36,982 bases of DNA from an uncultured Planctomycetia bacterium (GCA_964492015.1 CAZBIH010000002.1:1-36982), one strand, 5' to 3'. Shown: positions 281-36,766, counted from the first letter of the stretch. Program-made: numbers and translations. Notes: generated by a model not told the origin, from the sequence alone.

Positions 281-3200
281 TTACGAAGACTGCAACAACA
301 TCCTCGAGGAGGTAAAATAAGCGCGAATAGCCAGCGCAATGCTTGCGGATAAAAGGGCCGGCAGGGCAAAACGGCGCACGGCCGCCGCGTTCCCCTGGAT
401 GAAGCTGACAAATTCTTGGCGGCTCAACCTGTCACCGTAGAAACTACGGTAATATTCATAAGCCTGATCTGCGGAGGTGACCGAAAGATCCCGGCCAATC
501 CCGCCCACACGGCGTACCAGCCCCAACGCGGGCCCGAATTCAAACACGGCCGCGATCTTGGACCGCGGATCCGACTGCAGATCCTCGAGTGTAATAAAAA
601 GATCCGGCACACTCCCGCTTTCCCAGGTTTTGTGGCTCCTCAAGAAGTCCGACTTCATCGACAAATGTGTCCGCGGCGCGCCAAGATCAGGGAATTCCTG
701 CCCCTCTTCCAAGAATACGGCGTGAGCCCCCGAAAGGTCTTTGTTCATGACCCCGAGCGCTTTCCTGCGGATCCCCTCATCCCCCTCAAGCTTCACATAA
801 AGAGAAGCCATCGGCGCTCCGGCAAATCCCGCCAGCAAACTCTTAAGAGCATTGGTCTCAAGCTCCGGCACCGCGTTTTGAAAACCGTTCAGATGGAGCA
901 CAACGTTCACAGTCATAGCCTGAGACGCTTCCAATTTTTGGTCGTTGGCCTTCGCGCGTATTTCTTTCATCATAAATACAATGTCCGCCAGATCAGGCGC
1001 TGATACTTGGCTTGCACTCTCATTAACAACACGGTCTTGAACGGGAACCAGTCGGGCACGCACCTGCCGGTAGACCGCGGGTCCTTTATAAACCGTGATT
1101 TCATCACCATTTTTTTTCTTAAAACGCAAAATTACCGGCGAGTCATAAGATTTGAAGCTCATGGCAATTTCAGCGCGATCAGGAATCCCCTGTTCTTTTT
1201 CTACGCCTGAGACAAAAGCGTCAAACTTAACGTCTAGGTTAGAAGCCAACCTCGCCCCCCGAGGTTCCCTTTCCGCGAGATTCTCGACAATGAACTCAGA
1301 TGCCAGCTTCTGCCTCTGGTCTTCCGGGAATTTCTCCGAGTTGTCCCACACCACCTTGATCTCTCCGGCTATTTCGCCTATAAAACCTTCGGGGAAACCT
1401 TGAGGATATTTGGCTGCGATCGTCTCCAATCCCCTGAATGCACTCGGGGTATAAGGCCCTGCCGTTTTCGCGATGAAAAGCAAGAGATCCTCCCCAACCG
1501 CATCATGGGCTTCCTTCATTCGTTTGGCAGATCCGGCGGACAGATAAAGTTTTCCGGGACTTTTGGCCAAATGGCCCAGCGCTTTAAAAACATCGTTGGA
1601 CCCAGCGCGCTCCATCAATTCAGCTAGGAAGCCCGCTTCCAAATACGGCGAGTTAAGATCGATCAGACGGATCTGCAATACAACCGGCTCAAGATATTTA
1701 TCGGACAAGAATTCATTGCCCGCAAACATCGCTTTCATGAATCGAGAGTCAAGATATTGGCTATAACTTGGATTTCGTTTCATAAGAGCCATGAAACCGA
1801 TCAAACCCCGAAGAAAAGGGATAGAGAAGATCCTCGGCTCTTTATCCGTCTCGGGCGTCATCAGGATCTCATACAAAAATTCGGGATCCGCAAGAAAAGC
1901 GTACTCCGGCCGATCCGGCAGAGCATCCAGATACTCATAAAACAGATCCAGGATGGATGACAACAATCCTTGCATGCCAGGATCCACGGCGGGAAGGACA
2001 GGGCGAAATTTTAGAAAGATCTCTCCAGCCAACGGATGAAGAAAGCGGTTTTTAGTCTCATAATGATCGGTGCCGGAGCCAAGGAAATCCCGAATTTTGC
2101 CCTCCTCCGCTTCCCCGAGATATTGCCCCACAAAATAGGCGATCTTATCCAGGGAATTTTTAAGCGGAGGGAGATACCCATGCTGAGCATCCTGCTTGTA
2201 TCCCCAAAGAATAGAAAAAAGAATGGATGCTTCATCTTTAAGCGACTTTTTTTGCTCCAAATACTTAAAAATTTTATGAATTAAGTAAACCGCTTCATTC
2301 GTACGTCTCTCATAGAAGTACTTCCGCAAATAAGGCCGAACATCCGGCTGGTCGGCAAAAGGCAAAAGATCTCTAAAAGCTTCAAGATGCTCTTTCTGAG
2401 ATTTCTCAGTCCATGGCGTTCTTAGCACCGTCAGGTCTTTGTGAATCTGATCCTGGTTAAAATCCTCTGCTAACCTAGCCCCCTTCTCCGAAGCTTTCTT
2501 AACCAGGTCTTGAACGTATTTCACAATGAGCTCCTGCTTCTCATCCAGGGAGTGTCCATCCTCCACATGATGGATCACCCGCATTTCAACCGCGATGTTG
2601 CCAAGTTCGGCTTCGGAAAATTGATTTTCGCGCGCTTTAGTCAGATCGATCAAGGCGTCCAATACTTCCTCGGTATGAGGTCCGGCTAATTTGGCTACAT
2701 GCATCAAAAGATCAGTTCCAACGGCATCGCGAACCTCCGCCACAGCGGCTTTTGAAAGATAGATCACTAGTTCTGGAAATCTATACAATGAGTTCAGCGC
2801 CGCCGAGTTTGGGCCAACGCTTTCTAAAAATTCTGCGATCCTCTCGGGATCATCAAAATACGAGGCCTGATCGGCATGGCGTGTCGAATTAATCGCGTTC
2901 GGCAACGCCATCACGTTATAAATTGGCAGACTTGAATTGATCGCCAGAATGAACCTTCTATTAAGATAACGCGGATCAAAAACACCTCTTCTTACTGAAC
3001 CGATAAACTGCTCTAAATTTCTGAGAAAAAAGAACGACATGCCAAAATTCCTGTCCTCCGGCGACTCCTCCAAAAGCTGTTTCAAATAATCCTCGTCGAT
3101 AAGGAATTGGTATTTGGGCTGAATTTCGCCTGACTTGTCAAAAAGCAGTTCTTCTTGCTGTGAGATAGCGCCTAGATAGTCATAAAGCCCGTCTAAAAAT

Positions 3201-6200
3201 TTTAGTTCATGATCCGGTGGAAGCGCTGTGCGAATCTTTAGAAAAATTTTAACAGCGGCTTTATATAAAGGTTTTTTTAGCGTGTCCATATAGTGATGAA
3301 GCGCGCTGTTGTCCCAAAGGGATTCCAGTTCCAAAAACCCAAAAAATTTAGAAAGCTCCTCTTCTGTCGCGTTTTTCAGAAAGGGCTTCAAAATACGGGA
3401 TACCCGTCCATAGTGCTCTTTCATCAACAACATAAAGGATCCGGGAACCATAGCGATTTTCCTGTACCTGTACAAGTGATGAAGAAGGAACGGGTGACGG
3501 TTGTTATCCTGTTCAGCGCTCAATAAAAATCTTAAGAACAGTGTGTATTTTTTGTTGAGGTTGTATTGTAGAGAATACGTAGTAAGCACCTTTTGCACGT
3601 CTTTTCTATCCAGAACAGGCATCAGCCTGGCAATGTGAGTCTCCTCGAGACCGGCTGGCAATTTTGACTTTGCCAGAATTTGCTTACTCTCCTCGATCTG
3701 GGTTTCGCTCAAGCGAGCGCCCTGCCCTATTTTTCCATTTTCAATTTTCCATTTTCCATTGCCTAGCCTTGCCCCCGCCGTAAACTCGCTCATCCAATCC
3801 ACAATTATTTCCCAGCGTTTGGGATTCGCAATTTGTTCATCCTTCAACCTGTTCGAGAGGGCTTTGAGCGCCACGGCAAAATCGCCGATGACAGAAGGAG
3901 GAAATCCTGAATGATAACGCATCGTATATCGAGTCAATATTCTGTACGCTGTCGATACACGATCGCCGGTGATATTTAAAATATAACTTAGAAAATCTGT
4001 CTCCACGATTGGCCGGACCTCCTCCAGTGCCAAAGGAGTCAAGTAAGGCCCAAGATTCTGTAAAGAAGACATCACAAGTGGATCCGTATGGGTTTTGACG
4101 ATCAACTTTGCCAAAAAGTCAGGATCAACCAGTAAGGGATTGAGATTGGATTTTTGTACCTCTTTGATCGTCCTCATCACCAGCGCCACTTTCGAGGATT
4201 GCGTCCTACGAATATCTCCTTTGATTGTCCCAAGCGCCAGGAGAAAACGCGGATGAATATAACCCCGACCGATCTTCTTCAAACGCATCTCTTCCACAAG
4301 GATTCTCAGATTTCTCAAAGCCTCTCCGGAAAAATCCTCCGCGTCATAGCCTTGAGAGCGGACAACCATCTCGACAAGCACCGGATTCAAGAGCATATCT
4401 TTTTCTTGTTGGGTCAATGCCATCCGGATCTTTGTAGCTTTGCCTTGCGACAAAACAGCCTGGACGTATTGGCTTATATCCTCGAGCGCGACAGCCTCAT
4501 CCTCTTGCCTTATAAAAGGTTTGATTCTTAAAAATAATTCTCTGATCTTTTGATCCGCCTCGTCTTGCGACAGTCTCGCCCCCGCCGTTTCATCCGACAA
4601 TCCCAGCATCTCCTCCAGCCCCAGTTCCGGCAAGCGGCCGCGTTTGGCCTTGAGGAGCGCAATCTTGAGAATGATGCCCATGAGTTCTTCGGTGGTGGGC
4701 TCGTGATCCAAGTTGACGGACTTGGTAAATTGGCTCACCCCCGGAGTATTAATTCCGATGAAAACAATATCGATCCCTTTTTCATTGGCTTCCGCCAGAG
4801 ATTCAGGGCTGGCCGAGCCTTCGCCATCCGTCAGGATAATTTCGAGTTTATTTTTCTGCGTCGCCTCTTTTTCGTGCTTGCGGATAGCGCCATTCACCGC
4901 GGCCTGGATGTCCGTGCCTTCGCTGGCAAGACGCGCGCGGATATTACCGAGGGCTTGCTCGATCTTTTGTTTGTTGCGGGAGTCTTGAAATTTTAAAAAT
5001 TGATAAAAGCGGTTACCCAACCCGCCCAGAGAAAACTCGACACCTTTATTTCGCACCGCCGAATAAAAGAAAAGCGAGCTGTAAATGCGCACCATGTCCA
5101 TAAATACCTGATCCAGCCCGCCGCCGGTGCTCCCGCTGATATCGATCGTCAGGCCGATGCTGACCGACGCCAGGCCCTCGACGACATGCGTCACCTTGAA
5201 TGCCTCCGGGTCCCATTCGATGACGCGGAGCATATCCGGCTCGTCGCCTTCTTCGGCGTAGCTGTACATCACTTTGGGCGAGCCGACAAAGGCGGTGAGA
5301 AATTTATTGATGAGTCCCTGGCCGACGGATTCGAGCTCTTCGAGATCCCCATGAACATCGGTGGACGCATCTTCGGCTTTCTCCTCATCATCGTCTTTTT
5401 TATCTTCACTTCCCGATTGACCGGTCCCTATTCCTGTCTGATCAGCCTGAGTGAGAGGCCGTAATGGATTTTTTGTGCCTTTGGGCCTCTTTTTTCCTGT
5501 AATTCGTATGCTGCCTTTTCGAGGCCTTATGCTCCTTTTTAAAATGCTCTTCTTCTTGTCATGTTCGGGCGTGTTAATTTTTGTGGAAGAACCGCCATCG
5601 ACGTAGTCCACAATTTCAATCTCGAGATCGGAAGGACCATCCACACCTCTTAGCATTTCAGTCATATAAGCCTCGCCGCCACCTCCGGTATTGACAATTA
5701 CTTTTTTGCGATAAACCCCTTTTTTCGCCGTATAGAGAAATTTTTGCCTATATTCATAAATAATTGCGGCAATTTTTTGGATCTGTGCGTTGTTCATAGA
5801 GAGAATTTCGTCCACGATTTTTTGGATTCTGTCGTTTTCATAATTATCAGTAATAAGCTCCTTTTCTTCTGTCACGGGAACTTTTTCTTGATACCGCTTC
5901 GCAAGCAAAAGGCCGTTTAGAATACCTTTGGCGGCTTGAGTATATTCGCCTTTTTCGTCCTTATTTTTAAAAATCAGCTTTGCCAATTCATGATTAAGAT
6001 AGGCTTTGGGATCCTCCGAAAAAATAAGTGGGAAAAGCATTGAATTAAGTTCCCTGTTGGCCGGTATTTCGCGGTCACTTTTTCTTGAACGTATTTGGTC
6101 AATCATGTGACCCAATTCGTGATACGCCATCCAACTAATGAATTCTTTCCGCGAAACTCCTGGGGGAGTCTGACTTGCCGCGCTTTCAAACACCACCGCG

Positions 6201-9200
6201 TATTCTCCCTCAAAATAGGCGCTGGCGTCTTTTGAGGGGAATTCATCCCCAGGCACAACATTGGCCTGAACAAAACTATCTTTAAATTTACTCGGATCCA
6301 ACCCCAATTTTTTAAATTGATCTTCACCAAAGGAGAAAATTTGAGATATTTTCTCCGCAAGAACGATGGTATAGGCGACTTCCCCAGCCTGGGAGACCTT
6401 GACAGCCATCGGTAAGAATAGATGCACCCCATGCCGCACAAATATGCTTCGCATCTTAAACATGGCATCTCTTAGTTTATCTTCATGCACAACGGACCGG
6501 TTATAAAGCGTTGTAAAATGTACGAGTGCTTTTTCAAGATCAGGGTCCAATTTCCTCGCGGCATTGTAAACAGATTGAATGAGAGAATCTCCCCCTTGCC
6601 CATCTGCCATGACGTGCACAAAAGGCGCGAGAATTTGTCTGGCGAAGACAAGCGTAGCCTCGGGCGACGCGGCATTAAAACGATCAGCCTCTTTCTGAAT
6701 CTCGGGGATATCATAATGAATATTGACTTCGTCTGACTTCAACTCCGGAGGCCTACTGTCTTCCGGAACTTCATCTAAATCATTTAGTTCCTTTTCATAA
6801 GCATCAATATCATTGAGTCTTTTCAAAATCGTCTCAATCGAATCGCGGTGAAGCACCTCTTCCGAACCCCAGAGATCGAGCGTCCGCGGCTCCACGGGCA
6901 CATATTGCTCGCCACGGGTGACAGCCAACGGTTGAACGACAGCGGCTCTTTCTAACTCAAGAGCCTTACGGCTTTTATCAATTCCTCGGCGGTGATATTC
7001 ATAAAGGATGTCGTTTAAAGCCCAGTTCTCATAATCCATCGGGTTGGGCGGCCATAACTTGTCAGCATAGGAAACAATTTCACGGGCAAATTCTTCGCGG
7101 CCTGAGTATTTCTCCATGGGGTTGAACGTCAGCACGACCATGATCTCGTCATCCACCTCAACCTCAAAACTTTCACCGGCGTACTCCACGCTAAAACGCC
7201 TTTCTCCGCGAAAAAGCGGCATGAGCGCGTAGATCAATTCCGGCGAGGCGTTGGCTTCGTCGATCAAGAGGATCGAGCGCGACGATGTTTCCTGCCCGGG
7301 CACAAGAATGCGCTTCCAATCGGCCTCACCGGCTTTGCGGACTTTTCCGGTGCGCGCTAAAAATTCCTTGATGCCCAATTCAAACTTTCCTTCTTTTACT
7401 TTTAGGCCCGCCGTGATATCGGAAACCTTCAGATCTTCATAAGCGTTGAGCGTGTACAAAGGCACACCCCAAATACGGCTTAAATTTCGTATACCCGTGG
7501 TCTTGGCGGCGCCTGTCTCGCCGTTTTCCATCACGACGCGAGGCAAAGACACACGGCCTTTAGGATCACGCACCCGGATCCAGGACTGCAAGAGGCTTGC
7601 GAACATCCGAGCGATCTCTTCGGTGTAGCGAAGATACTCCGGTGTTGAGACTTCCGACGGGGGCAGAGCGCGCTCCTGGTTGAAAGCGTCCCGCGCCAGC
7701 GGCAGACCGCCGATAGAGTCGATGAGTTCCATTTCGATCGTGAGAGTTTCCCCGTCTTTTTTGGCGTACAGGCCTTCCGAAAGCCGGCGGCCCTTCTCAA
7801 GCGCCTCAGCGGTCATAGGATAGACAGCGCCCGGAGTGCGGATCGCGAACATCGTTTGAGCCTCGTCGTTGGTAGCGGTTTTTTCAATACGAATGCCGTT
7901 GGCCAACCCCACACTGTCGCCCTCGGCTTTTAAGCCCGACAGATCGAGAGTGACTACACGTTTGCCGGTTTGCACAAGCGCCAGGCGCTCGTGGATCGCG
8001 GCTATGGTTTCCTGATAAAAATATTTGACCTGGGTGGGCTTGGCTTTTTTCTTAAAAACCAATTCGGCTAAAAGATGATCCCGGATAATTTCCTTTTCCA
8101 CTTTCAAGCGGTCGGACTTCTCAAGCGCCTGCAGATACACCATCGCCGCGGCTTTGAGCACGTAATACAGCGGATTGGGATTTAAGGGTTTAAAATCAGC
8201 CTGTTTGTCCGTCTGAATAATTTCAGCAAGCTTGAACACTTCTCTCACGGTGAAACCATAACGGAGGCCGAATCGCTGAGTTTTGTCGTATTCGCTCACT
8301 TTTTTAGCCAGCTCCAGGATCCACTCGGCTTCACTCTCATCCACAAGCGGATAACGGTTCATCAAAAGGGTTTTGACTTCGTCAAAATCCTCAAACGCGT
8401 CGACCCGCACCGGCAGAAAACGGTTGATGAACGCCGAGGAGAATTTGTGCTCCACCGCCGAGGAGATCTGCAAGTTCACCCATTCCGGCAAAATATACTC
8501 GATCGACTCGCCTTTCTCATTCTGCAGGGTCATGCGCCGCGCCTGGAGCATCTCGCTCAAAATAATGTTGAGGATCACTCTCTGTCTTTCGGGGATGGCG
8601 TCCATGAGATTGAAAAAAAGAAGTTTCTGGGCATGGGGTTTACCTTTTTCAGTCCGGTATTCCTCCTCTGTCAGAAAATGCCTCAACATAAATCCAAGCG
8701 TCATCTGAAATTCCTTGGAAGCGGCTTCCTTGGCGACTCCATACTTGTCGAACTCTGACTCAAACTTCATCAAAACGCTCGAAACCAGATGCATCCGCGT
8801 CATCTGGGGATGTGACCACAGCGTGTGAAACTCACGGCCTGAAAGATAAGCGAATTTGCGCGCCAAGTCGTACGCATCCGCGCCCTCGGATTCCAGATAG
8901 GCTGTCGGCGCGTGAAGTGAGAGTCCGAAGGCCATCGCGCGAAGCGCGCTATTTTGCGACGGAAGCTCTTCCGGATAAGCGATATCAGTCTCGGAAACAT
9001 TGGTCACGCCTTCCGACTTTTCAAGGAGAATACCCCCGAAATCAATTTGGCCGTTTTTTTGTGAAATTTTTACGGGGCTTCTCCACCATTTCAAATGTTC
9101 TATAAAATCAACCCCAAAAATATCCGTCACCTCCAGCCACATTTTGGGGAATTCCATCCGGTCCAGACGGGAAAGATAGGCGGTCATGATCCCCGCGAAC

Positions 9201-12200
9201 AGAGCACGCTCTACTCCTTGAGCGTTATCCCCGCGCTTGACCGCCTGCATCACCGACTCGGTGACAAGGATCAGCTGGCGGGGGCTCAGCTCCGTGCGAT
9301 GCGGATGAACCTCGTTGAAACGCAGGTGAAGTTTGGCGATCCTGTCTTTCAATCCTGAATTCAACTTTTCCCCTTGCAGGGTGTAATCAATGATACGTAT
9401 CGCGTCCGCGTGTGAAAGGGCGTTGTCCGACCAGATCTTGTGCGAAAGCGTATCCGCGCCATAAGGGATCTGCTCGCGGCCGCTGATGGACCCGGCGGGA
9501 TTCTGAGTGATGCCGATATGGAAAGAGGGGTGCCGTTTTACGATCTGTCCGTGAAGCCCCGGATGAAAAGTCCCTAGATCGAATTGGTCCAGACGGCTTA
9601 AGTGGGTCAAAAACGAGATCACTTCTTGTGAATTAGCGCCGATCGCGCCCTCATCCAGAAGAAATAGGCCTCCCTCGCTGTATGCCTTTAAGAAATCCAG
9701 CGTAAAGTGCCCGTCAGCATCCTTGTCCGAGGTCAAAATAAATTTGTCGCCGCGTTTGGACAGGCGTCCTAAAAAAGTCCCTAGATCAATTTCACCGTAC
9801 ATCAGCTGGCGATAGTAGGGTTCTCCCAGACGCTTGGCGAGCTCACCAAAAGATACGGTTTTGCCGCCGCCCGGATATCCCTCGATCAAAATAGGCCGCC
9901 CGTGGCGCCAGGCGATGATCATCGCGGCGAGCTGCCGTACCAGAGTTTCGGTCGGCGCCAGAAATAATTTTTTATCGGGGATCTCCGTGTAGCGCGTATC
10001 GATGGAAATGCCGTCCACGACCAGCCGCACAACTCCGGAGACATTATTTTTGGCGTAATGAATTTGCCACGACGGATCCGCCATCGGCGCCGGGAGAATA
10101 CTCAAGCCTTTCTGGTATTCAGGCCTCAATCCGATGCCCAGGGTGTAATAAGCCACTTTATGAACGAGCGCCTCTGTTTCTGGGTTCCAATCCCGCGAAA
10201 AAACTTTTTGAGTGTTTAGTTCTGCCAAAAAGGTATCCAGATCTTTTCGGCCGAGGCGGTTGTGCTCATATTCATAGTTTTTGGCCTCTTTCTTGTAAGC
10301 TTCAAATACTTCCAGCGCGATAGCAATTAAGGGAAGTGTGAACGCGGACGGAGTCTGCGACAACTTGGCTTGAAAATACCGCTTGATCCAGGCTTCATCC
10401 AAAACATCACCGACATTGACGCTGATAAAACGGTCGATCTCAGCGGCGGAGAGCTGAGTCTTTTCGACGGCAGAGCCGGTGGCGATAAATTTAAGATTGG
10501 ACGGCGCCTGCGTATAGAACCAGCGCGCGAACTCAAGGCGTGTCGTCGGGTCCAGAAGAGCCGTTTCGGCATCATCCCCTAGAAGGCGCCCAGTTGATTT
10601 CTGGTATTCACGAGCCAAGGCTGTGAGAAATCCGGAATCTTTTTTATCCAGAATTTTTTCTATCAATGCCGAAGCGATGCCGCCGTCAATGCTTTCGGCC
10701 AGGCTTTCAAGCCGGCCTGTCTGGAAAAATTCATTCAAGAGCGGCGCCGATTGGGGATTAAGCCGCGTGTAATTGTGCAACACAACAGTGTGAGTTTTGT
10801 CCGAGGACCGCAGTCTCGCCTCCTCGATCAACTCCGGGATCATTCCAAGGCCGTGCTCGAATTGCGGCGACAGACGGTCCAGAGCCTCCCACCCTTGAGG
10901 CCGTTGCTTTTCCTGACTCTTACGCGGAGGAATAAAACCGCTGACGAATTGCCTGCGGCGATGAAAATAACTGAGCGGCACATCATGAATGACCGCCTGG
11001 GCATCTTCGCGGCTGATCAGGGAATCCAGTTTTGAGAGATCGCTTGTCGCGTTGGAGAAAACAAGAACGGGTTTCTTTTTCTTAAAAGCCCTGGAGAACG
11101 CCTGATCGGCATTGATATTCCGGGCTTCGATCCCCCCCTCTTTCAAGATCGCGTGCACCAGATTCCTGGCGCGGGCCTTGTCCTCGATCTCCTTCCACAT
11201 AAAAACATAAACTCCCTCCACCGCTTTCGCGAAAGCCGCGGGCGCGTCATCGCCGTGAGTAAGATAATATTTGAAATCTTCCAGCACGCGGATCAACTCG
11301 CGGCGGGTAATGTCTTGAGGGGAAGTAAAAAGACGGTTTTTTATTTTAGCTTTGGCTAATTGCAAGTGAAGTTTAGTAAGTATCGGCGCGAAACGCTTGC
11401 TCTGGGCGTCCAGGTCTTGTTCTTTAAAAAATCCATGAATGATCTCGGGCAGTTCGGCGGGGTCGGTGGCCATGTAATAGCGGGGAATATGCGCGGCGAT
11501 GCGGGGCGGAGTGGCTTGGCGGCCGGTAAATCCGTCGGGGTTTACCGTATACAGCCACAAATTATTCCGGTGGATCGCGGTTGAGCGGATCCCTTTGTTT
11601 TCAGGATCCAGAGGCGCAAATTCCGGCAGATACTTGAGGTTCCGGCCGGCTGTTTCGGGGAAATTCCAATAATAAAGCGAGTTGTTCTGGTTGGTGTTCA
11701 TTTCATTGTACAAAAATAAATGGCCGCCTTCTTCCAACCGCTTCAAGTACTGTGCCTCATAGAGACGGTAGCGGCCGTCCTGCGTCACACGGATGTGGCC
11801 GCGGAAATCCGCCAAGTCCGTGTCTTCGTTGATCGTATTTTCCTCGAGGCCCAAGCCCACCATGCGGGAAAAAACACGGGCAAGCTCGGTCTTGCCTTCA
11901 CCGGAGGGACCCTCGATCTGAGCCATCTGAGTACCGTATTTGAGATCACGGACAAGTTGAGAAAAAACACGTGCTTCCAGATCCGACACAACAAATCCGT
12001 ACCGGCCACGGATCAGCTCCCGGGGAGACTTTTCAGGCGAAGCTTCTACGGCTCGTTTGAAATCCTCTGACATCTTGATCCCCACGCCATCAAAAAATAT
12101 CAGATCCCCCGCGATCTCGATCTGAGGCGTGCCGGGATTTTTTCCTTTCAAAAATTCAAGCGTTTTTCTGTCTTCGGCGTTCCTCAACCGCAACCAGAGA

Positions 12201-27200: not shown

Positions 27201-30200
27201 TCCTCCCGGCTGTGATAAGCCGCCATGACAACACTTGGATCCAAGAAGATCTCCCGCTCCTTTTCCGAAAGGAAGTACCTTGCAAAATTTAATTTTGGCC
27301 CTTGCTTTCCGCCGATACTCATCTCATAATTAAAAACGAAATCAATATATTCCGTTAATTGGCGTAAAACATCCGTCCAATAGCTGTCCGGAATCCGGGT
27401 TTTAAGCTGACTATCCGAAACAAGTCCCCGAAAGAGGCTCCAAATGATCTCGCTCTTTCGCTTTTTGTCTCTTGAGGCTGTCACTTTACTCCGTAATAGC
27501 CGCAAGAAGCGGCTTTTAGACATGGTTTTGAGATCTTGCCCGCGGATGACGTCAACCTTGGGTTTCACTTCATCAAAAAATTCATCGATTACTCCGGGCC
27601 TGTGCTCATCTTTCCAAGCCCAAAGAATGTCCCGCGTGGCCAGATCTACTTTCTCATCCTGCGGTAGATGCCTTATCAGCACATCTATTGCGTTCGTGTT
27701 TAAGCTGCGCCAAATATCTCTGGTGAAGTCTAAGGTGCGTGTAATATATCGGATCAAAGTTGCTTCAAATGCTTGGCTTCTTAATTTTTTTGAAAGCGCT
27801 TGGATAAATATCTCATCTGTATTTCTATTCTCCGAGGCTTTCAAATAATCTTTCAGGAGTTTACGGATCTCAACATCCCCGCGATACGGAATCAGGAGAA
27901 TAGCAAGCACGCTATCCCTGTACGACGATTGAGATGGCCTTTTGATCTCATTGAAAAGCGCCGCTTTTACGTAAGCCAACTGATCATCCGTCAGATATCC
28001 CCTGTTTTTTCTTCTTTCCTCTTTCCTCTTCCCTCTTCCCTGCCTTTCCGCCAATCTCGCCCCCGCCGCATCCCCCAAATATTTTTTCACAAACTCAGAA
28101 GCCCTGACTTCCCTGAGCCTCGGCGACATCGACGGCAAATACTGATGAAACACCGTAAATTGCTCCAAGAGCTCCTGCTCCAGCGACTCGTTCACAAGGC
28201 CCGGATGCTGTTCGGCAAAGTCCCTCAGCATCCCCAGGCTCTCCACCGCCTGCCAGCCGGTGAACTCGATGATCTTTTCTAAAAATCGCGTGCCTCTTAT
28301 TTCAGGATAAGCGGACTCTCCAAAAACATAACGGTCCAAAAATGGCAGCCACTTCAAAATCCTGTCACTTTCCGGGGAGTACCTGCCAAAGACCTGTATC
28401 AGAAATTCTTTCCGTAAAAGATAGGAAGGATTTTTACCCGTTATATCCTCGGGCTTAAAAAATTTAAAAACTTCTACTGCTAGCCGCTCCTGGAGCCCTT
28501 CGATCAGTATCGGAAACGCTCGTGAGGGCTGCCTGTGAATGACAGAAAGAATGGACCTCATGTTATCTTCCGCGATCATGACCGCTATGTTTCCAAGGCC
28601 CAAAAGCTCCATAGAGGAGACCAGATCCAGGACTTGAGAAGCCGCTTTGATATCGATCCCGGCTCCGGCAGCCCGGAATTGCTCGCGAATGAACGCCATT
28701 TGTTCCACAAACCCGGATTTTTCAAGCGCCCTTCTTTTGGCCGATAAAAACTGCGTCACCGAATCCGCCCGGCCCGATGCCTTGAGCAGGTTTTCTAAAT
28801 TAGAAGCAGAGCCCGGCAGGAGAAGTTCGAGCTGCCAGAGGATCGGCACATCATAACTTTCAAAAATGTTTTTCGTGACACGGACTTCGGGCTCATTTTT
28901 TTCGTCATAGGCGGGCCACTGCGAGATGAGAGATCGGATATCCGCCACTGATGCTTTGGCGGACTCAAGATCTATTTGAAATGCCTGCCCCTGGGCACGG
29001 ATCGCTTTTGAAACCGTTTCAAAATACTGGGGCCCCGCGCTGCGGGCGAGCTCCGCGTAGACCGGCCAGACAGAGGGCATTTTTTCGCCCATTTCTCTTT
29101 TTAGATGCCAGAGCTGTTCGGCGAGCGCTTTCTTTTCGATCCCCGCTTGAGCCAAAAGGTGCAGATCCAGCCAGCGGCTCTTAAGCTCTTCCGGAGACCA
29201 GCCCAAAAAGAAACCGAGCGCGTCGTTCCTGGGATCCTCAGCGCGAAAAGAGGCGCTATGAAGCGCCTCCAGGAAAACGGAGGCATTAGAAGTCACTGCT
29301 TCCCGGGCAAGTACCGTGATCTTCTGGTCTCGCTCCGGATCGCCCGTTTTCAGATCACTTAAAGGTTTAGCGGCCTCGACACCAAAATCCAGGACAAGCC
29401 TCCGGTAAAAATCAAGATCTCCAAGATCTCTGTATTCACCCGGATTTTTTGTTCCCCACATCAGGGAGACAAAATATCCGATGGACTTGGTCCCTTCGAT
29501 CCGGGCAATAGCCTCTCCGGCCGTATGACGAACTTCTGGAACAGGATCCAGCAACAACGCTCTTTTTATCGCCGGCAACGTGCCGGGATCATGCGCGTCC
29601 ACAGCGCTCAGAGCTAATAGGATCTCTTGCCGGTAGGATGCAAACGTCCTTGAATATCTATCCATGATCGAAATCAGGACCGGCGCCGCGGAGGACGCCT
29701 TGTCGCCAAATCGCGCCAGGATCTGGGCAAAAGGCTGACGCGCCGGATTGGTCTCATCCGCCAGATGATGGATCAGATGCGGGATCACCTCCGGTCCGAT
29801 CTTGAACAACGCTTCCGCCGCCTCCGCTGAGGGACCCTTGGAGTCATCGCTGGCGGAAACATTGTCTTTACGCCGCACCAAATTGCACAGCTCCCAAGCA
29901 GCCTCGATCGCCTCCGGGCCCAGGAGCCCCAACTTTTGAGCCACTAATTGGCGTATCTCTATTTCCGGATCACTTAAAAGCCCGATCAACCTTTGAATTT
30001 CCTCTCCCCTCTTTCCTCTAACCTCTTCCCTGTTTTCAGCCAGTCTCGCCGCGCTATCCGCTTTCTGATTCAGTTCTGTCCAAAATTTTGACGTCAAATC
30101 CACCCGATCACCATTTGGGATCTGTTCCGCTCTCGCTAGAATCGTCAGAGCCTCTTTCAAATCTAAAATCGTCTGCTCAGAAAGCAACCTCTTCCCGTTC

Positions 30201-33200
30201 ATCACAAGAAGATAATGTTCATACATAGAGAAAGAGTTGACTTGTCCAAACTGATGCAATTGCGCAATCAACAAAAATACCTCTTTGTCCAAAACGTAAA
30301 GAGGGAGTTTTCCTTCGGCGACAGATCCGGCGATCGAAAAAATAATCTGTGTAAGATCAAAGATATAAGTCTGCCCCGTCTTGAGATAAATATCCTCCAT
30401 AAGGTCTGCTGTAAAAAATTTCTTCAGGATCTCATCCGGAAGCTTTGGATCTATTTCAAAAGCGTCTTCCATGATCCGGACTGTCGTAATAAGATCTTTC
30501 TTGGGGCCCGCTTTCATCTTTTTGATCAATTCAAAGATCACGTGCCAATAATATGAAAAAATACCCATGGCAAGAACCACTTTTACTGTTTTTGGATCGC
30601 CCTCAAAAACCCTGTAGATCTCCGCTCTTAACAATTTCATATCTGCCCGCATTAGAAGTCCGCCGCCGAGATTCCTATTTTTCTCAAAGTTGTACGCACA
30701 GAGTTCAAGCGCAAGTAGGATATATTTGGGATCGATCTTTGATCGGGCCAAAAGTTCCTGCACAAAGATCTGTTGTCCCGTTTTTTCGTAGGTATCACGC
30801 TCTATTGGGGTTGCCACGAATTGGCTTAATATTTCTCTGGCCTTAGGCTCGTCATAACGGTCCAGGAGCTTCATCGCCGCCATTTGTTGAATATCATTTG
30901 GAAGGTCCGACATATTTCCCCGGCGCATTACCTGATCGGTTGTGCGACCCATATCATATTTCAGATAATGCATGGCCATCGGACCCAACATGCCCGCCGT
31001 GGACGGGGTCTGATGAAGTTCAATAGCCAATTCAATATCATTCGGCACGTGAGTTGCCTCTTCATAGTTTTTTATCCAAAGAAGGTGAACCAGCTTCATC
31101 CGGTCATCCAGCGCCGTAGGATTCAACCGGTATATTCTCGCCAAAAGATCCGACGGAGAGAAAAGGTTCGCGACCCACGACTGATACTTGATCAAATGCT
31201 CCCAGGTCACTTGAGCCGCCACCGGCATCATTGCCGCCTCATCAAATCGCTTGTCCAACAGACGGTCATAAAATCGCGCGGTTTCATCATCCCGGCTTCT
31301 TAGTTTTAAAACTGACCGATATTGATTCAGTATCTTGGGTACATCTAATGTTACACCTTGAATAATGTCCCCCATTAGACGCTCTAAAGACTTGTTTTGT
31401 GATTCGGAGTGGACCTTCCAATAGGCAAAAGGACCGCCGCTTCTCTCAACAGTCCACACAAAGCGCATAAACTCAACCACATAGATAAAAATCTTTACCG
31501 GAAGCAGACGCTGACCCAAACCATCCGGCAACATCGCCCGATAAATTAATTTCAACAGGCCAGCCGTTTCTCGCAAGCTTCGTTTTTCCTCTTTCCTCTC
31601 CCCTCTATCCTCTACCCCGCTTTTAGCCAATCTCGCCCCCATTTCACCTTGAGCCTTAGAAAGAAGCTCCGCCATAAATTGCGCGACCCTCTCATATCTC
31701 TGCGGTGGTTCGTATTGATCCGCCAATAGCGCTATCGCTTCTTTGAGCTCCATGACGACCCGTTGGGTCAGCTTGTCTTGGCTCTTTAGGGCCCGCACAT
31801 AATCAAAATAATTTTTAAAAAGATCTCCCACCATGAGATGAGCCCGAGTATTTTTAACGATCAGGTTAATAAGCTCAGTGTCTAGAACATAACTTTCAAG
31901 CTTTTCTTTTTTCACATCTTCAGCTACTTGAATGCCTATCAAAAGAAAATCAGCTGCGAAGTTCCCTGATTGTTTTGATATTGTGTCAACAACATCAGGA
32001 CTCAAAAATGTCAGATCCAGACCTTTCAGTCTGGCATCGACCAATCTCCATCCAAGCTTGATAAGAATGCCGCCGATAAATCCCCTCCGATCCGCCTGGT
32101 TCTCACGATTCTTAAGGATCAACTCTGACAGTACAGGGTAGTTTTTATCGTCTACAAATCGAAGCTGTTGGCGGATAAATTCAGGATCTGCGCTAACCCA
32201 AGAGGGATCCGTGGACTTCTGAATCATTCCAGCCATTGCGTCACGGTTGTTAAAAATCATCCTCCCTGAATCACCGCGAGCCAAAATACTCGAAGTGGAA
32301 TTTTGATTGATGTGCATCCGGATGTGAAAATATAGAGTCAACAAAAGCGGCAGATACTGATCGTCCGCCGCCACGAGCCTTATTAAGTGAGAAACAAATC
32401 CATTCCTTTCCGCATAGCTTTTCATCTCTGGAAAATAATCTCGCTCAATAAATCGAGCTAGCGCTTCGGCGACTCCCGGCTCCGCGACATGATCCAAAAG
32501 CTTGATGGCCGCGGCTTGAGTAACCTCGGTCGAAATTCTCATCGGTTTGGTCCGTCCGATCCCATACCCAGATTTTATTTTCTCAAGTACCTCCAACGCC
32601 GCCTCTTTGTCCATTTTTTGGATGAAAAAGTCGACAGTTCGTCCCCCTCCGTCCGTTTTAAACAATTCTTGAGCATATTGCCACGCGCCCGGCACCTGAT
32701 CGGCGGAATCATAATCTGCCTTGTCGAGAAAATAATAAAACTTTGCCTTGTCGCTGACTTGATCCGGCTGTTTCTTCATCAGGACATCCATTAATCTCCT
32801 AGAGACCTTGATCAACTTTTCCGATGAAGAGTTTTCAATCGCTTCGATGAACATCGCGCTTGCCCAACGTCCGGCGTCCTCAAATCGCGTGGCCTGTCCC
32901 CACCGGCCTTGATACGCCAAATAATAAAACTGAGCCTCCGCATCCTGCCTGCGTCTCAGGATCTCAGCCGCCGCCATCGATCCGTCCGTGGTCAAAAATA
33001 AGACCTTTCCTGATTCCAGTTTTTTCCTGAGAATCTGACTCCTGAACTGTCCGGGTTTTAAATAGACACCCAAAGCGGCCTTTAAAAGCAGAAAAGGCTC
33101 TTCTTCGCCGAACAAATTATCCTCGATCATCCAAAACACATCTTTAAGGTCCGCAAATGAGTAAAAATAAAGATGCGTCCAGTACCGCGGCAAATACCTG

Positions 33201-36200
33201 AAAAATATCCCGATTTTCTGCAGGGTCGACAAGCCTCTAACCTCTTCCCCGCCCTTCGCCAGCCGCGCCCCCTGTCCAAAGTTGTATTCGCTCAGGTACT
33301 CCGCAATCCTCTCCTGCCGTCTGGCGTCTTCCCAATGAGCGTCCCGAAGCGTTCCATCTAGAAGAAACAACGCATCATTCAAACCCAGGAGATCATGTTC
33401 TGTCATTCCATTCGGCCGCTTGGCTAAGATAGCCTTCAACGCAGTGAACGCCCGCGCAGCAAACGGACCTGTCATTTTCAACACAGTTTCCAAAAAGCGA
33501 GTTCCGTGGATCTCCTTTGTCGATGCGTCAGGATTCATATAGCGTCCGAGCTCCCACAACGCAGCGTAAACTCCTTTTTTTGCCTCATCATTCTGAGGAC
33601 TCGGCAAGGTGGTTTCGATCGCGATTAAAAGTTCCGGTGACAATCGCTCAATCATCATTCTTTGCTCTTGAGTCTGGATGTCCTTTCCGAGAGTTGAGTG
33701 AATAAATTTCTCTATTGAATCCAGCGGGTATCCCGAACCATTGTCGGAATGCAAATAAATGCTTTGTAGCACCGCTGAGTTTAACGCCAGAAGAGTTTCC
33801 TTTTGGGACAACTCTCTGGTTAGCGCATTATGTGCCGCAAACCGTTCCGAAAAAATAGCAGTAAGATAATGCGTTAGCTGGAGGAGGAGCGCCGCATGAT
33901 CCGCCGATCCAAATTTATTTTTGATCTTCGGATCCGTGGTGATTTGCTGATACGTGTTCCTGATCCACTTCACATGCCATGGAAGACGCCCGGATGTGAT
34001 CACAAGCTGTCTGGAAATAATAGAATCAGGCACAGAATCGATACCCGATGACTGAAGAGAATGCCCCAGAATTGCCAACACTTTTGTTTCAAAGGGAACA
34101 TTAGTTTCTCGATATTCGTAGCCCGCTTTGTACGCGAGAACCCATAGCAGTTCTCTTGCGACTTTATCCAGACCCCGTCGCCGATTCTGATGCGCACGCC
34201 ACAAATCCAGAGAGATCGGTGCTGCCAGCCGGAACGCACCGCTATTTACAATAAAATGTTCGGCATTATCCATTAGATTTTTAGCCCATTTGGGACCTAG
34301 TAGAGTCGAAGCGAAATGCGTATCACTTCCCCACTTAATCAAATGATAACGAAGCGCGTCCGCCACGAAGGTCAAGTGCCGATAGGGAAAAAGAAGGCTT
34401 GCCGCCGCCGAAGACTCGTTGGATCTTTTCTCATGATTCCATCCTTGCGTGGGATCTGTAATTTGTTTGATCAAATTCTTTATTGCAAGCTCGTTCAAAA
34501 ATTCTTTTTTCTCTTTTTCCTCCTCTTCCTTTCGCCCTCCGTCTTCCGTCTTCGGCCTGCTTTTCTTTGCCAACCTCGCCGCACTCACTGCCGCCTTCCA
34601 ATCCATCCCCGCAATATCCCGAACAAACATATCCCGGTTCCCCAGCGTGTCCGTGGCGATCTGGCGGATCATGAGAGAGCTTACGGCTGAAGGCGCCGGC
34701 GCAGACCCGGAGCTTATTCTCTGTCTCAACAAAAGTTCCTCATAACGGCGCGTGTTCGTTTCTTCAAGGATCTGCGGCACGATCGAGATGTAGGAAATAT
34801 TTTTAGACTTAAGGATCGATTTCAAATTCGGCGCGTGATAACCGCCGGTGATCAGCACGGCTTTCTCTTCAATTTTCAATTTTCCATTTTCCATTTCAAA
34901 AAGCATATTCTGTACAAATTTTTTGTCCCTCTCATAGGTGAGCGAATAAAATTCCTCACAGAGCTCCGCGATATCGTTATAACCGGGCTCCAAAAATACC
35001 GCCTGCCCGTAGAATTCCTTCAGGTCCATGATCTTGCGGTTCAAAAATCCAGTGATCCTCTTCATGTCGTATTTTGTTTTTTGGCTGCGGTAGGTTTCGA
35101 AATCAGCCGGTGTCATTCGCAGGCTCAAAAGATCCCCGAGAGCCCGAATATTTTTATCCGCCTGGACCAGAGCCTCTTCGTCCGGCGTCTGAACAAGAGC
35201 TCCAAAAACTTCCTCTTCAAGCGATCTCTGCTCCGCCAGCACGCGGACAGGAGAAAAAGCCTGGGCCTTTTTGAGATAGCGCAGATATTTGAAAAGTTCG
35301 GGATACCGCGCCTGAGAGGCTGTTCCGGCAAGCTTTTCTTCCAAGAGACAAAAATAGGCCTGCCGTACACAATTATTTTTACCGGACATTTTTTCAGGGT
35401 CCCTTTCCGCGCCGGAAACAGATCCAAGATCTTTCCTATCCGTGGCAGACAGCGCCGCGACAGCTTGAACCTGCTCTTCATTGGCCCGGTTAAAATCAAT
35501 GCGTCTTTCAAGATCCGACAACTGTTTGGAGTGTTTTAAGTGGGTGTATTTTTCTGTCTTAAGCTTGAGCATTTCTGCCATGCGGTACAAGGCTTCGGTA
35601 TATTCCGCCGCGGACAATTGGCCCTGCCTGAATTTTTTCGTCTGCTTATCGAGCGATAGGAGAACGGGGTTTTCAATACGCGGTTTTAGGATCTCGATTC
35701 CGTGAGCGGCCTTGGCGAGATAATTTTTAAAGCGCTCCCTGTTCTTGGCAACTTGCCGGTAAACGGACAATGCCTTTTCGTAGAGTGCCGGATCTTCCAC
35801 ACCCCAAAGCGTAAGCGGCAGATCGGAGGTCAGGTCGAGATACTCACTGCCCTGCAGCTCGCCTTTCATCAGATAAGACCTGGCGACTGTTTTCCTTTTT
35901 TCAGGACTTGCCAACGCCCTCAGGAAAAACAACGAAAGATCGCCTGAACCACCTTCTAAAAAAACAGAAGCTGTCTTTCCCTCCCCCCTCTTCCCCCTAT
36001 CCTCTTCCCTGAATAAATAGTCAAGGGTCTTCGCCACATTCAATTGCCCAGAAATATTCGTATGAGCATCCTGGATTAGAACAACGGTTTTAGAAATATT
36101 CGGCGCACGGTAGGCGTCTTCGATAGAGGCGATAGACTTGGGTAAATTGGGAAGTTCCCGGCGTGCCCAGCTCTTGGCATCGGCGTCAGAATTCCAACGG

Positions 36201-36280: not shown

Positions 36281-36437
36281 AAGCCCTGATTTATTAAAAA
36301 TAAAAACTCCTGAAAACCTGTTGCTACACGTTTGTTTTTAACGAGTTAGAGGGGATGACAAAGAATATACTGTGGCCACCCCCTGGAAAAAGGATGGGGC
36401 TTCTCCCATAATTTCTTCATCGTAATGCCATGCGAGA

Positions 36438-36688: not shown

Positions 36689-36766
36689 TGGTCGGGATGC
36701 AGGGATTTGAACCCTGGACCTCCTGGTCCCGAACCAGGCGCGCTAGCCAAGCTGCGCTACATCCCG
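36689..36766 (-). tRNA. tRNA-Pro (anticodon CGG), CCA encoded
   Basis: Reverse complement reads CGGGATGTAGCGCAGCTTGGCTAGCGCGCCTGGTTCGGGACCAGGAGGTCCAGGGTTCAAATCCCTGCATCCCGACCA. It has acceptor CGGGATG/CATCCCG, D arm GCGC/GCGC, anticodon stem CCTGG/CCAGG with loop TTCGGGA, and T arm CAGGG-TTCAAAT-CCCTG. Length 78 nt. Confidence 0.93.

Follow-up and report, generated by a model that had tools for sequence, protein, structure and literature searches.

The window analysed here, i.e., the whole 36,982-nt stretch of DNA from an uncultured Planctomycetia bacterium (GCA_964492015.1, CAZBIH010000002.1:1-36982), carries on its minus strand one open reading frame (ORF) of 11,999 codons and a stop (281-283), whose first canonical start is a TTG. 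The largest other ORF of the window would encode 234 aa, and a tRNA gene lies on either side of the giant ORF (Table 1). The encoded chain starts with a signal-peptide-like segment and a conserved domain (the N-domain), and continues with an array of modules delimited by a five-residue junction motif, a motor cassette with six AAA+ domains, a HExxH site and a von Willebrand factor A (VWA) domain with a metal-ion-dependent adhesion site (MIDAS), further modules and a C-terminal domain. With moderate confidence, we read this as one giant modular gene whose product would use ATP to remodel targets under the guidance of the MIDAS, with helical modules as the scaffold.

The giant-ORF frame contained no stop codon, the two other sense frames having 39-74 stops per 1,000 codons, and in every 1,000-codon block the G+C content of the first codon position (GC1, 0.51-0.58) was higher than that of the second one (GC2, 0.34-0.40). 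Over 300 nt the identity between the internal DNA repeats did not exceed 72%, and over the 44-60-nt stretches that encode the motif it was 60-86%; because these repeats have diverged at the DNA level, a collapsed assembly is unlikely. Furthermore, both ends of the ORF are ends typical of the protein family, which argues for one genuine, intact giant gene. An earlier interpretation made from the sequence alone (the sequence-only reading) had claimed a single genuine 36-kb ORF, and the uninterrupted frame, the codon-position signal and the diverged repeats bear it out. The span that it gave, 281..36280, is indeed open, but its upstream limit is probably seven codons short. We take a rare in-frame ATT, located 7 codons before the TTG, as the probable true start, because an AGGAG sequence precedes it by 5 nt and the N-terminus extended from it (MFNKSGLLKTVSL...) aligns with the N-termini of the homologues, and does so better than the TTG start. 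The AGGAG lies 26 nt from the TTG, too distant to serve it.

The motor cassette is flanked by a junction motif at each end, and from aa ~7370 to 10567 it is collinear with proteins P0001-P0005 from metagenome-assembled genomes (MAGs) of Omnitrophota, with 27-44% identity; the next sequence matches were eukaryotic midasins (E ~1e-12). Six AAA_5-class domains, A, B, B', C, D and E, could be delimited in it. Domains B, C and E carry a P-loop (GPSGEGKT at aa 8124, GYPGGGKT at aa 8801 and GETGAAKT at aa 9587, respectively) and a Walker B motif (NE at aa 8193-8194, DE at aa 8877-8878 and DE at aa 9675-9676), and the degenerate domains A, B' and D have neither. When the domains were compared by hhalign, B, C and E matched one another with 95-98% probability, and A, B' and D with 67-89%. 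Pfam recognized AAA_5 at A, B and E and a midasin-type AAA lid in D, with AAA signals over aa ~7720-9725. Judged from these comparisons, the ring looks like a triplicated inactive-active AAA pair.

The ring is followed by a helical domain with a HELGH sequence, the only HExxH of the protein (0.38 expected by chance), by a charged low-complexity spacer, and then by the VWA domain, which was detected by Pfam at aa ~10378-10515 (E 2.4e-9) and whose profile matched an integrin I-domain among the PDB sequences (2e-5). In 10 homologues of 23-39% identity the W..HE..H residues, a downstream NxE, the DxSxS of the MIDAS and the D of the TDG were invariant, and the HExxH...NxE combination is a putative zinc site. 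One homologue, P0001, runs on past the VWA domain into a GGIDFDPAKINMEI... segment that is absent from the window protein.

A profile of the cassette aligned with an alignment of eukaryotic midasins at 99.5% hhalign probability over 692-980 columns, in several registers, and in a comparison with all PDB sequences it matched midasin (6OR5, 8e-18; 5JCS, 6I26 and 6HYP, 1.4e-16), the runners-up being NorQ (3.5e-4) and Lon (~3e-3). The match needed a profile: phmmer of aa 8500-11999 against PDB gave nothing. The window motor and midasin (MDN1/Rea1) are laid out in the same order: one polypeptide carries six dynein-related (AAA_5) AAA+ domains and a midasin-type AAA lid, and further towards the C-terminus a charged spacer precedes a VWA domain whose MIDAS is complete. 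However, the midasins P0006-P0009 (four of the five sequences retrieved) have six GxxxxGK[ST] P-loops each, and only three of the six domains have one here. In addition, ring and MIDAS are ~570 aa apart in the window protein (aa ~9800 to ~10370), including the HExxH domain and the ~95-aa spacer, whereas a ~1,700-aa linker and a D/E-rich region separate them in midasin (PMC11603028). The window motor also differs in that it is bacterial, lies inside a 12,000-aa modular protein with a signal peptide, and has the extra invariant HExxH. Since only the AAA domains share sequence similarity with midasin (8-12% query coverage, E ~1e-12), the window protein is probably not a midasin orthologue, and to our knowledge bacteria have no 60S pathway.

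The MoxR-VWA pairs (NorQ/NorD, CbbQ/CbbO and RavA/ViaA) have in common with the window motor the AAA+ clade and a MIDAS-bearing VWA domain, and in the logic proposed for them target binding falls to the VWA domain and remodelling to the ring (PMC13036017, PMC9976466, PMC3495828). MoxR, however, is a homohexamer of a ~300-aa subunit with a separate VWA protein, whereas in the window protein everything is fused, with half of the sites dead and an inserted putative zinc site. The FtsH-type zinc proteases also have an AAA+ module followed by an HExxH-plus-Glu site in one chain, but their AAA class is different, and no M41 similarity or fold match was detectable for the HExxH domain of the window protein. 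By analogy, the protein might act like midasin or a MoxR-VWA pair, yet with three dead sites, a short linker, the HExxH insertion, the one-chain fusion and no apparent orthology it would be a member of neither family.

Table 1. Features of the window and of the giant protein (nt, window positions; aa, residues counted from the TTG).
Feature	Position (nt)	Strand	Details
tRNA-Pro(cgg)	36689-36766	minus	upstream of the giant ORF
Shine-Dalgarno-like AGGAG	36307..36311	minus	5 nt upstream of the in-frame ATT (36299-36301)
Giant ORF	281..36280	minus	11,999 codons + stop; probable start 7 codons further upstream (ATT, 36299-36301)
Signal-peptide-like segment	36224..36280	minus	aa 1-19; h-region TVSLVLVIFYF, c-region IQDIAFA, then TS
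Conserved N-domain	34721..36163	minus	aa ~40-520
Span of the 20 [GA]ARL[ASG] junction motifs	1244..34582	minus	starts at aa 567, 1004, 1548, 2077, 2740, 3179, 3598, 3829, 4044, 4710, 5174, 5576, 6246, 6795, 7322, 10567, 10836, 10854, 11267, 11675
Modules M01-M14	14303..34567	minus	aa 572-7326; self-BLAST and module clustering
Type I modules			~400-460 aa; M01, M05, M06, M10, M11
Type II modules			~530-550 aa; M02, M03, M13, M14
Type III modules			~665 aa, with HEAT repeats; M04, M09, M12
Short modules			M07, M08
Motor cassette M15	4568..14302	minus	aa 7327-10571 (3,245 aa); junction motif at each end
Six AAA_5-class domains	6881..13513	minus	Pfam, hhalign; A aa 7590-7830, B 8090-8420, B' 8420-8770, C 8770-9100, D 9100-9480 (midasin-type lid 9301-9403), E 9560-9800; Walker B motifs listed at aa 8188 (NE), 8872 (DE), 9670 (DE)
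Post-ring helical domain	5576..6763	minus	aa 9840-10235; HELGH aa 10054 (nt 6107-6121)
Charged low-complexity spacer	5291..5575	minus	aa 10236-10330; rich in K, G, D, E
VWA domain, full MIDAS	4601..5173	minus	DISGS aa 10380 (nt 5129-5143); TDG aa ~10484
Type IV modules M16-M18	1244..4567	minus	aa 10572-11679
C-terminal domain M19	284..1243	minus	aa 11680-11999 (320 aa); moderately hydrophobic tail aa 11971-11989
tRNA-Val(cac)	64-140	minus	downstream of the giant ORF

The junction motif [GA]ARL[ASG] was found 20 times, exactly the number given in the sequence-only reading, as against 0.76 +/- 0.91 (maximum 4) in 300 shuffles, and GARL alone was expected 0.46 times from the composition. No copy lies inside the motor, and in the window protein the motif is often followed by a charged linker. 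Cutting the chain at the motif yields 20 units, namely the N-domain (M00), 14 modules, the motor M15, M16-M18 and M19. At the 20 sites the Arg is encoded by AGA, AGG, CGG, CGT and CGC, and the Leu by six different codons; since both residues vary across codon families (AGR and CGN, TTR and CTN, respectively), selection acts on the peptide rather than on the DNA, and a role of the motif at the DNA level, as a recombination site or an internal Shine-Dalgarno sequence, was rejected. The ORFs of the relatives contain 187 GARL sequences vs 7.3 expected; the next residue is Ala in 76% of them, Ser in 10% and Thr in 7%, and no other conservation is seen in the flanks. The broader pattern [GA][AST]R[LM][ASTG] occurs 323 times in 41 relatives of at least 1,500 aa, 11.6 being expected, and it is at least 3-fold enriched in 37 of these 41. 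In some lineages GARLA is replaced by GSRLA/ASRLA, GTRL or GARM/ARMA (L040, L072, L062, L092, L082 and L094), which is consistent with co-evolution with a motif reader. These patterns suggest a family-wide short linear motif that would be read at the protein level, as a docking or a cleavage site.

A conserved element of ~106 aa, always closed by GARL[AS], recurs 16 times in the window protein. A word-indexed search with this element found nothing, an exhaustive HMMER search found 11 proteins that matched mainly a ~38-aa helical repeat in its first half, and the element was not found in 77 loci that encode N-domain relatives (see below). Long arrays of a ~38-aa helical repeat are present in the Omnitrophota/Elusimicrobiota proteins P0011-P0017 (up to 5,950 aa), whose modules end with A[QK]SLGA or GASLG, an analogous yet different junction motif. 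One of them, P0015, has tandem AAA domains (six Walker A P-loops by eye), an HExxH and a VWA domain together with the ~38-aa repeat arrays.

The internal protein repeats have diverged as well, with 22-71% identity in the self-comparison, and Pfam covers a small part of the chain: HEAT_2 (aa 2166-2259 and 5709-5778), AAA_5 with the midasin-type lid, and VWA. No Pfam match was obtained for module types I, II and IV or for the C-terminal domain, even at E 0.5. The C-terminal domain, however, matches the C-terminus of a complete relative of 3,704 aa (L025) with an E of 4.6e-6. A C-terminal domain shared with P0011, P0012 and P0015, which was suspected from similar endings, was discarded when BLAST and hidden Markov model searches found nothing. 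Module M03 is the only one with two 19-aa segments of moderate hydrophobicity, LPVKIFIYVVEFMRFVWTV and VVLAMGIFSYYWHVIFELI (window ~30538-31504, aa ~1593-1919), which may be marginal membrane segments; the second one is absent from the other type II paralogues. Much of what had been claimed for the architecture from the sequence alone was recovered, i.e., an ATPase core within repeated modules (an AAA+ motor and a MIDAS domain inside ~8,750 aa of modules), the HEAT repeats, the MIDAS motif (DxSxS at aa 10380, within the Pfam VWA domain) and the absence of hallmarks of nonribosomal peptide or polyketide synthetases, RTX proteins or immunoglobulin (Ig)-like adhesins, of which Pfam found none in the protein. 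Two further claims stood in part: the term "helical" applies to the HEAT modules, the N-domain and the HExxH domain, for which alone it was shown, and among the Walker motifs the P-loops at aa 8124, 8801 and 9587 belong to the motor, but a string at aa 96 is probably fortuitous. This perfect Walker A string (GKRGEGKT, aa 96-103; 35969-35992, minus strand) was rejected as an ATP site, since none of the nine aligned homologues has the N-domain insertion in which it lies.

The homologues P0022-P0030 share the N-terminal ~520 aa with the window protein (28-42% identity) and also start with similar signal-like segments. The segment of the window protein has a Kyte-Doolittle value of 1.79-1.85, and [AS][FYW]A is conserved at the equivalent place in P0022-P0027, so that the signal-peptide-like start noticed earlier is a predicted Sec-type signal peptide. 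Across 65 N-domains, QDAHxN, E70, GVE123, E219, R412 and GGxH443 are invariant, and this set of residues looks like a metal-hydrolase site. The Tiki/TraB/ChaN superfamily is a fold with paired His motifs (GxxH-type) and conserved Glu and Arg. The DAH, GGxH, Glu and Arg of the N-domain fit this pattern, and the N-domain may be a metal-dependent hydrolase, distantly Tiki/ChaN-like. The ChaN/Tiki superfamily entry PF04187 was matched below threshold by 2 of 10 members (best E 0.0011) and by 9 of the 65 N-domains (best E 0.011), DUF5694 (5/65) and DUF5682 (3/65) being further sub-threshold matches, and the N-domain of the window protein itself had no Tiki/ChaN-type Pfam match. The AlphaFold model of the N-domain (predicted local distance difference test, pLDDT, 78.9) has a long helical insert beside a small alpha/beta core; Foldseek with this model gave no match at E <=0.001, and profile searches of the PDB were empty.

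When metagenome contigs were scanned, 202 stretches were found to encode relatives of the N-domain, and 77 loci were taken for analysis. In almost all of the loci with 10 kb of downstream flank, the ORF was still open after >3,850 aa, so that giant genes make up most of the family. Complete members of 1,570-3,990 aa also exist, as do stand-alone N-domains of ~510 aa, which may be the ancestral or free form; the stand-alone versions are 510-525 aa long in L059, L093, L096 and L099, the last three having about 1% cysteine, an ordinary content that the giants do not share. As in the window protein, the first junction motif usually follows directly after the N-domain; this holds for P0022, P0023 and most relatives examined. 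The motor cassette was present in 21 loci of GTDB species representatives (best identity 48%). These loci are mostly from Omnitrophota, some being labelled Planctomycetales, Elusimicrobiota, Auribacterota or Actinomycetota, and some of the nearest homologues likewise bear a Planctomycetota, Elusimicrobiota, Auribacterota or Actinomycetota label. The parallel with Omnitrophota drawn in the sequence-only reading was well chosen, as the closest relatives are mostly proteins of Omnitrophota MAGs, and by these similarities the window protein is probably from an Omnitrophota-type uncultivated bacterium. The same N-domain opens two complete motor-bearing ORFs, L003 (5,390 aa) and L018 (6,436 aa), as well as L013 (>8,149 aa, still open), and GARL is absent from all three. 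L025 lacks the motor but shares N-domain, motif and C-terminal domain with the window protein; hence, the cassette behaves as an insertable unit within the family. Since some contigs carry two N-domain genes, genomes can hold several paralogous giants. This is the case of the L018 tandem (1451-20758 and 21719-25171) and of the contigs Ga0247727_10000187 (L037 and L070) and Ga0247727_10001351 (L049 and L077).

The signs of where the protein would work are in conflict. Its 11,999 residues include 7 cysteines (0.06%), none of them after aa 5624. The cysteine content is 0.00-0.24% in most giant relatives (0.77% in L075) and 0.4-2.2% in most neighbouring genes of the relatives, a ~10-fold depletion. 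The hydrophobicity profile has one N-terminal hydrophobic segment, a few marginal ones and no strong stop-transfer helix. These three features, the signal peptide, the cysteine depletion and the lack of a stop-transfer helix, argue for a predicted export. In several relatives strong transmembrane helices follow right after the N-domain, which would place the N-domain outside and the rest inside. This arrangement, together with a motor and a normal cysteine content, is found in L003 and L018, and by these features both probably keep the motor in the cytoplasm. The earlier claim of a secreted or membrane-tethered protein is thus backed by the signal peptide and the cysteine depletion, but it conflicts with the ATP need of the motor. 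The cytoplasmic face, the periplasm or surface, and the inside of a host or prey cell are the candidate sites of action.

The mechanism that we propose was derived from what is known of midasin and the MoxR-VWA systems (PMC8837202, PMC13036017, PMC9976466, PMC3495828). The MIDAS domain would grip an acidic residue of the target via a metal ion, by analogy with midasin and the MoxR-VWA chaperones, and ATP hydrolysis at the three competent sites of the ring would pull on the target or remodel it. The adjoining zinc site may cut the target, as in the predicted scheme of Zhang and Aravind in which the vWA recruits, the MoxR unfolds and the peptidase cleaves (PMC3495828). The helical and HEAT modules could provide a long binding or spacing scaffold, and a protein partner might recognize the junction motif, for docking or for processing. 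Several results weigh against this proposal. The Sec signal and the cysteine depletion suggest that the protein leaves the cytoplasm, in which case its ATPase would be without ATP, and no strong transmembrane segment is there to hold the motor inside. The register relative to the six domains of midasin is ambiguous, and three of the six sites are competent, unlike in midasin. The model of the HExxH domain is weak (AlphaFold pLDDT 63), with no significant Foldseek match (best E 0.66) and no significant Pfam peptidase match (1 of 10 members touches Peptidase_M78, at E 0.07). Finally, the Tiki/ChaN matches of the N-domain are sub-threshold and lack structural support, and the type I, II and IV modules, putatively helical, have no Pfam match.

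Other explanations of the locus were considered. The ORF could be an artefact, either a chimeric or collapsed assembly or several genes joined by sequencing errors, and the gene is indeed modular, repetitive and from a metagenome-like source. Frame errors do occur in such genes, given that the relative P0023 is split into overlapping ORFs of 701 aa and 3,116 aa. We give this explanation hardly any credit, since 36 kb run without a stop, the DNA repeats are merely 60-86% identical, the domain order is collinear with independent homologues across the 3.2 kaa (thousand amino acids) of the motor, both terminal domains have counterparts at the ends of relatives, and the ORF stays open for >3,850 aa in almost all of the 77 related loci that reach ~10 kb past the N-domain. 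A less improbable, though still unlikely, alternative is that the ORF encodes a self-processing polyprotein, in which [GA][AST]R[LM]A marks cleavage sites (GAR|LA, or after Gly-Ala) cut by the N-terminal hydrolase-like domain or by the HExxH site, so that ~18 helical proteins and a free 3,245-aa motor are released; the giant ORF would then serve delivery and stoichiometry instead of encoding one working chain. The motif is short, with unconserved flanks, small residues before it and often charged linkers after it; it delimits every recognizable unit, including both ends of the motor, and its first copy usually stands directly after the N-domain (in the window protein, P0022, P0023 and most relatives examined). 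Co-varying lineage variants such as GSRLA, GTRL and GARM are as expected with a co-evolving reader enzyme, the same protein offers two candidate metallohydrolase sites, and cleavage by in-built peptidases has also been raised by West-Roberts et al. On the other hand, neither candidate protease domain matches a known peptidase family significantly, giants with an N-domain and no motif exist (L003, L013, L018 and L036), and 16 of the motifs close a folded-looking ~106-aa element, for which they could be structural caps. A more specific version, an exported polyprotein that cuts itself with one of its own metallohydrolase-like domains and frees a cysteine-free motor to work outside the producer's cytoplasm, e.g., within an attached host or prey cell, whose ATP would drive the MIDAS-guided dismantling of target complexes, seems doubtful to us.

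The signs of export can also be read without any motor activity, if the exported chain serves passively, as a surface coat or an adhesin by which the cell attaches to host or prey, and the AAA+ cassette is a nucleotide-independent structural or binding element. The conserved signal peptide with an AxA-type site, the ~10-fold cysteine depletion relative to neighbouring genes and the lack of a strong stop-transfer segment agree with such a coat, HEAT scaffolds and VWA domains are common in adhesion, and adhesion or predation roles have been proposed for the giant ORFs of Omnitrophota. We consider it improbable, however, because Walker A, Walker B and the MIDAS are kept across homologues of 25-48% identity, which argues for catalysis, Pfam found no Ig, cadherin, discoidin, dockerin or TSP3 domain, and the relatives L003 and L018 probably keep the motor in the cytoplasm. 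A further rival is a one-chain version of a vWA-MoxR conflict or defence system, NTP-dependent and situated in the cytoplasm or near the membrane. The vWA-MoxR modules are among the core components of predicted bacterial conflict systems (PMC7159879), and several paralogues per contig and fast divergence are typical of conflict genes. Nevertheless, a signal peptide and cysteine depletion misfit a cytoplasmic sensor, PADLOC gave no significant match, Pfam recognized neither effector nor sensor domains of known type, the viral contigs of IMG/VR lack the motor, and the upstream neighbours are housekeeping genes and not defence islands, so that this possibility appears very slight. We retain the MIDAS-guided, ATP-driven machine as our working interpretation.

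Giant ORFs are already known from Omnitrophota (West-Roberts 2023; Seymour 2023), and, as in the window, they are very long single ORFs of probably host-dependent uncultivated bacteria. In published work they are described as poorly conserved and largely without annotated domains, and adhesion and predation roles were proposed for them. They also share with the window protein N-terminal signal regions, few annotated domains, and HEAT_2 and AAA_5; in the set of West-Roberts HEAT_2 is the commonest Pfam domain, AAA_5 is among the top 20, and self-cleavage by in-built C39 and S8 peptidases was speculated. The window ORF exceeds the length of a single ORF >20 kb used by Seymour 2023. For proteins >30,000 aa, West-Roberts 2023 described Archaeovorin and Dockerin types. 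The Archaeovorin types, >30 kaa long, have many transmembrane helices, SecA_DEAD and enzyme domains (glycosyltransferase, methyltransferase, glycosyl hydrolase, peptidase, SAM and NUDIX), in contrast with the 12 kaa and few or no transmembrane helices of the window protein, in which Pfam found no glycosyltransferase, glycosyl hydrolase, methyltransferase, NUDIX, radical-SAM, peptidase, SecA_DEAD, dockerin or TSP3 domain. PADLOC and NCBIfam gave nothing significant for the window protein. Nothing relevant came up when the literature was searched for midasin-like proteins of bacteria or prokaryotes; the texts of two giant-gene preprints do not contain midasin, dynein or von Willebrand, and the 2026 one does not contain polyprotein, cleavage, linkers or junctions either. 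The class of giant Omnitrophota ORFs is thus known. What is new with respect to the searchable literature is the architecture, which joins the N-domain and modules set off by the motif to a midasin-like ring in one chain, complete with HExxH and MIDAS.

Giant ORFs are a recognized, unexplained trait of Omnitrophota and of other host-dependent, ultra-small bacteria, and the present one offers three experimental handles. The conserved N-domain recovers >200 relatives; the five-residue junction motif divides the chain into units and is testable as a cleavage or docking site; and the 3.2-kaa motor cassette is self-contained, with eukaryotic midasin as its closest solved relative. Rings of six AAA domains in one chain (dynein, midasin and RNF213) are usually deemed eukaryotic inventions, the six-tandem arrangement having arisen early in eukaryotes from MoxR (PMC3495828). 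A bacterial fusion of ring and MIDAS would be either an independent solution or a prokaryotic relative, and in both cases it bears on the origin of such motors; were the protein an exported self-processing polyprotein, single-chain six-AAA rings with a MIDAS would likewise not be purely eukaryotic. The tension between the signs of export and the need for ATP points to a biology that is not yet understood, possibly the delivery of effectors into other cells.

Several minor observations concern the relatives and the flanks. In P0023 (ENA contigs ERZ1426824 and ERZ1426835) a 701-aa gene overlaps a gene of 3,116-3,118 aa by 29 nt, identically in two assemblies, which could be a real or a sequencing frameshift in a giant gene. 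A viral origin was rejected, as the exact sequence and relatives of the motor were both absent from IMG/VR. Operon partners were sought and dismissed: the recurrent upstream genes are housekeeping genes (HemN-like radical SAM, agmatine deiminase/CN-hydrolase fusion, DEAD helicase and TauE), confined to a subset of closely syntenic contigs. The fusion of a carbon-nitrogen hydrolase with a Porphyromonas-type peptidyl-arginine/agmatine deiminase lies immediately upstream of several distant family members, L075 (4568-6571), L086, L088, L090 and L097, and probably reflects polyamine metabolism and synteny, yet it places an arginine-modifying fold beside a protein with many copies of an Arg-centred motif. 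The tRNA-Pro and tRNA-Val neighbours of the window were not seen in 56 related loci, so that the conserved tRNA-Pro/giant gene/tRNA-Val order suggested as a check in the sequence-only reading did not hold, and Rfam found nothing in the window beyond these two tRNAs. Promoter-like sites in the window were not clearly more numerous than in shuffles; one of them, TTTACA-17-TATAAT at 36840-36812 (minus strand), is near consensus and lies upstream of the tRNA-Pro gene. Between this gene and the giant ORF, a weaker promoter-like site at 36529-36500 (minus strand) is followed by a hairpin with a T-run at 36409-36394.

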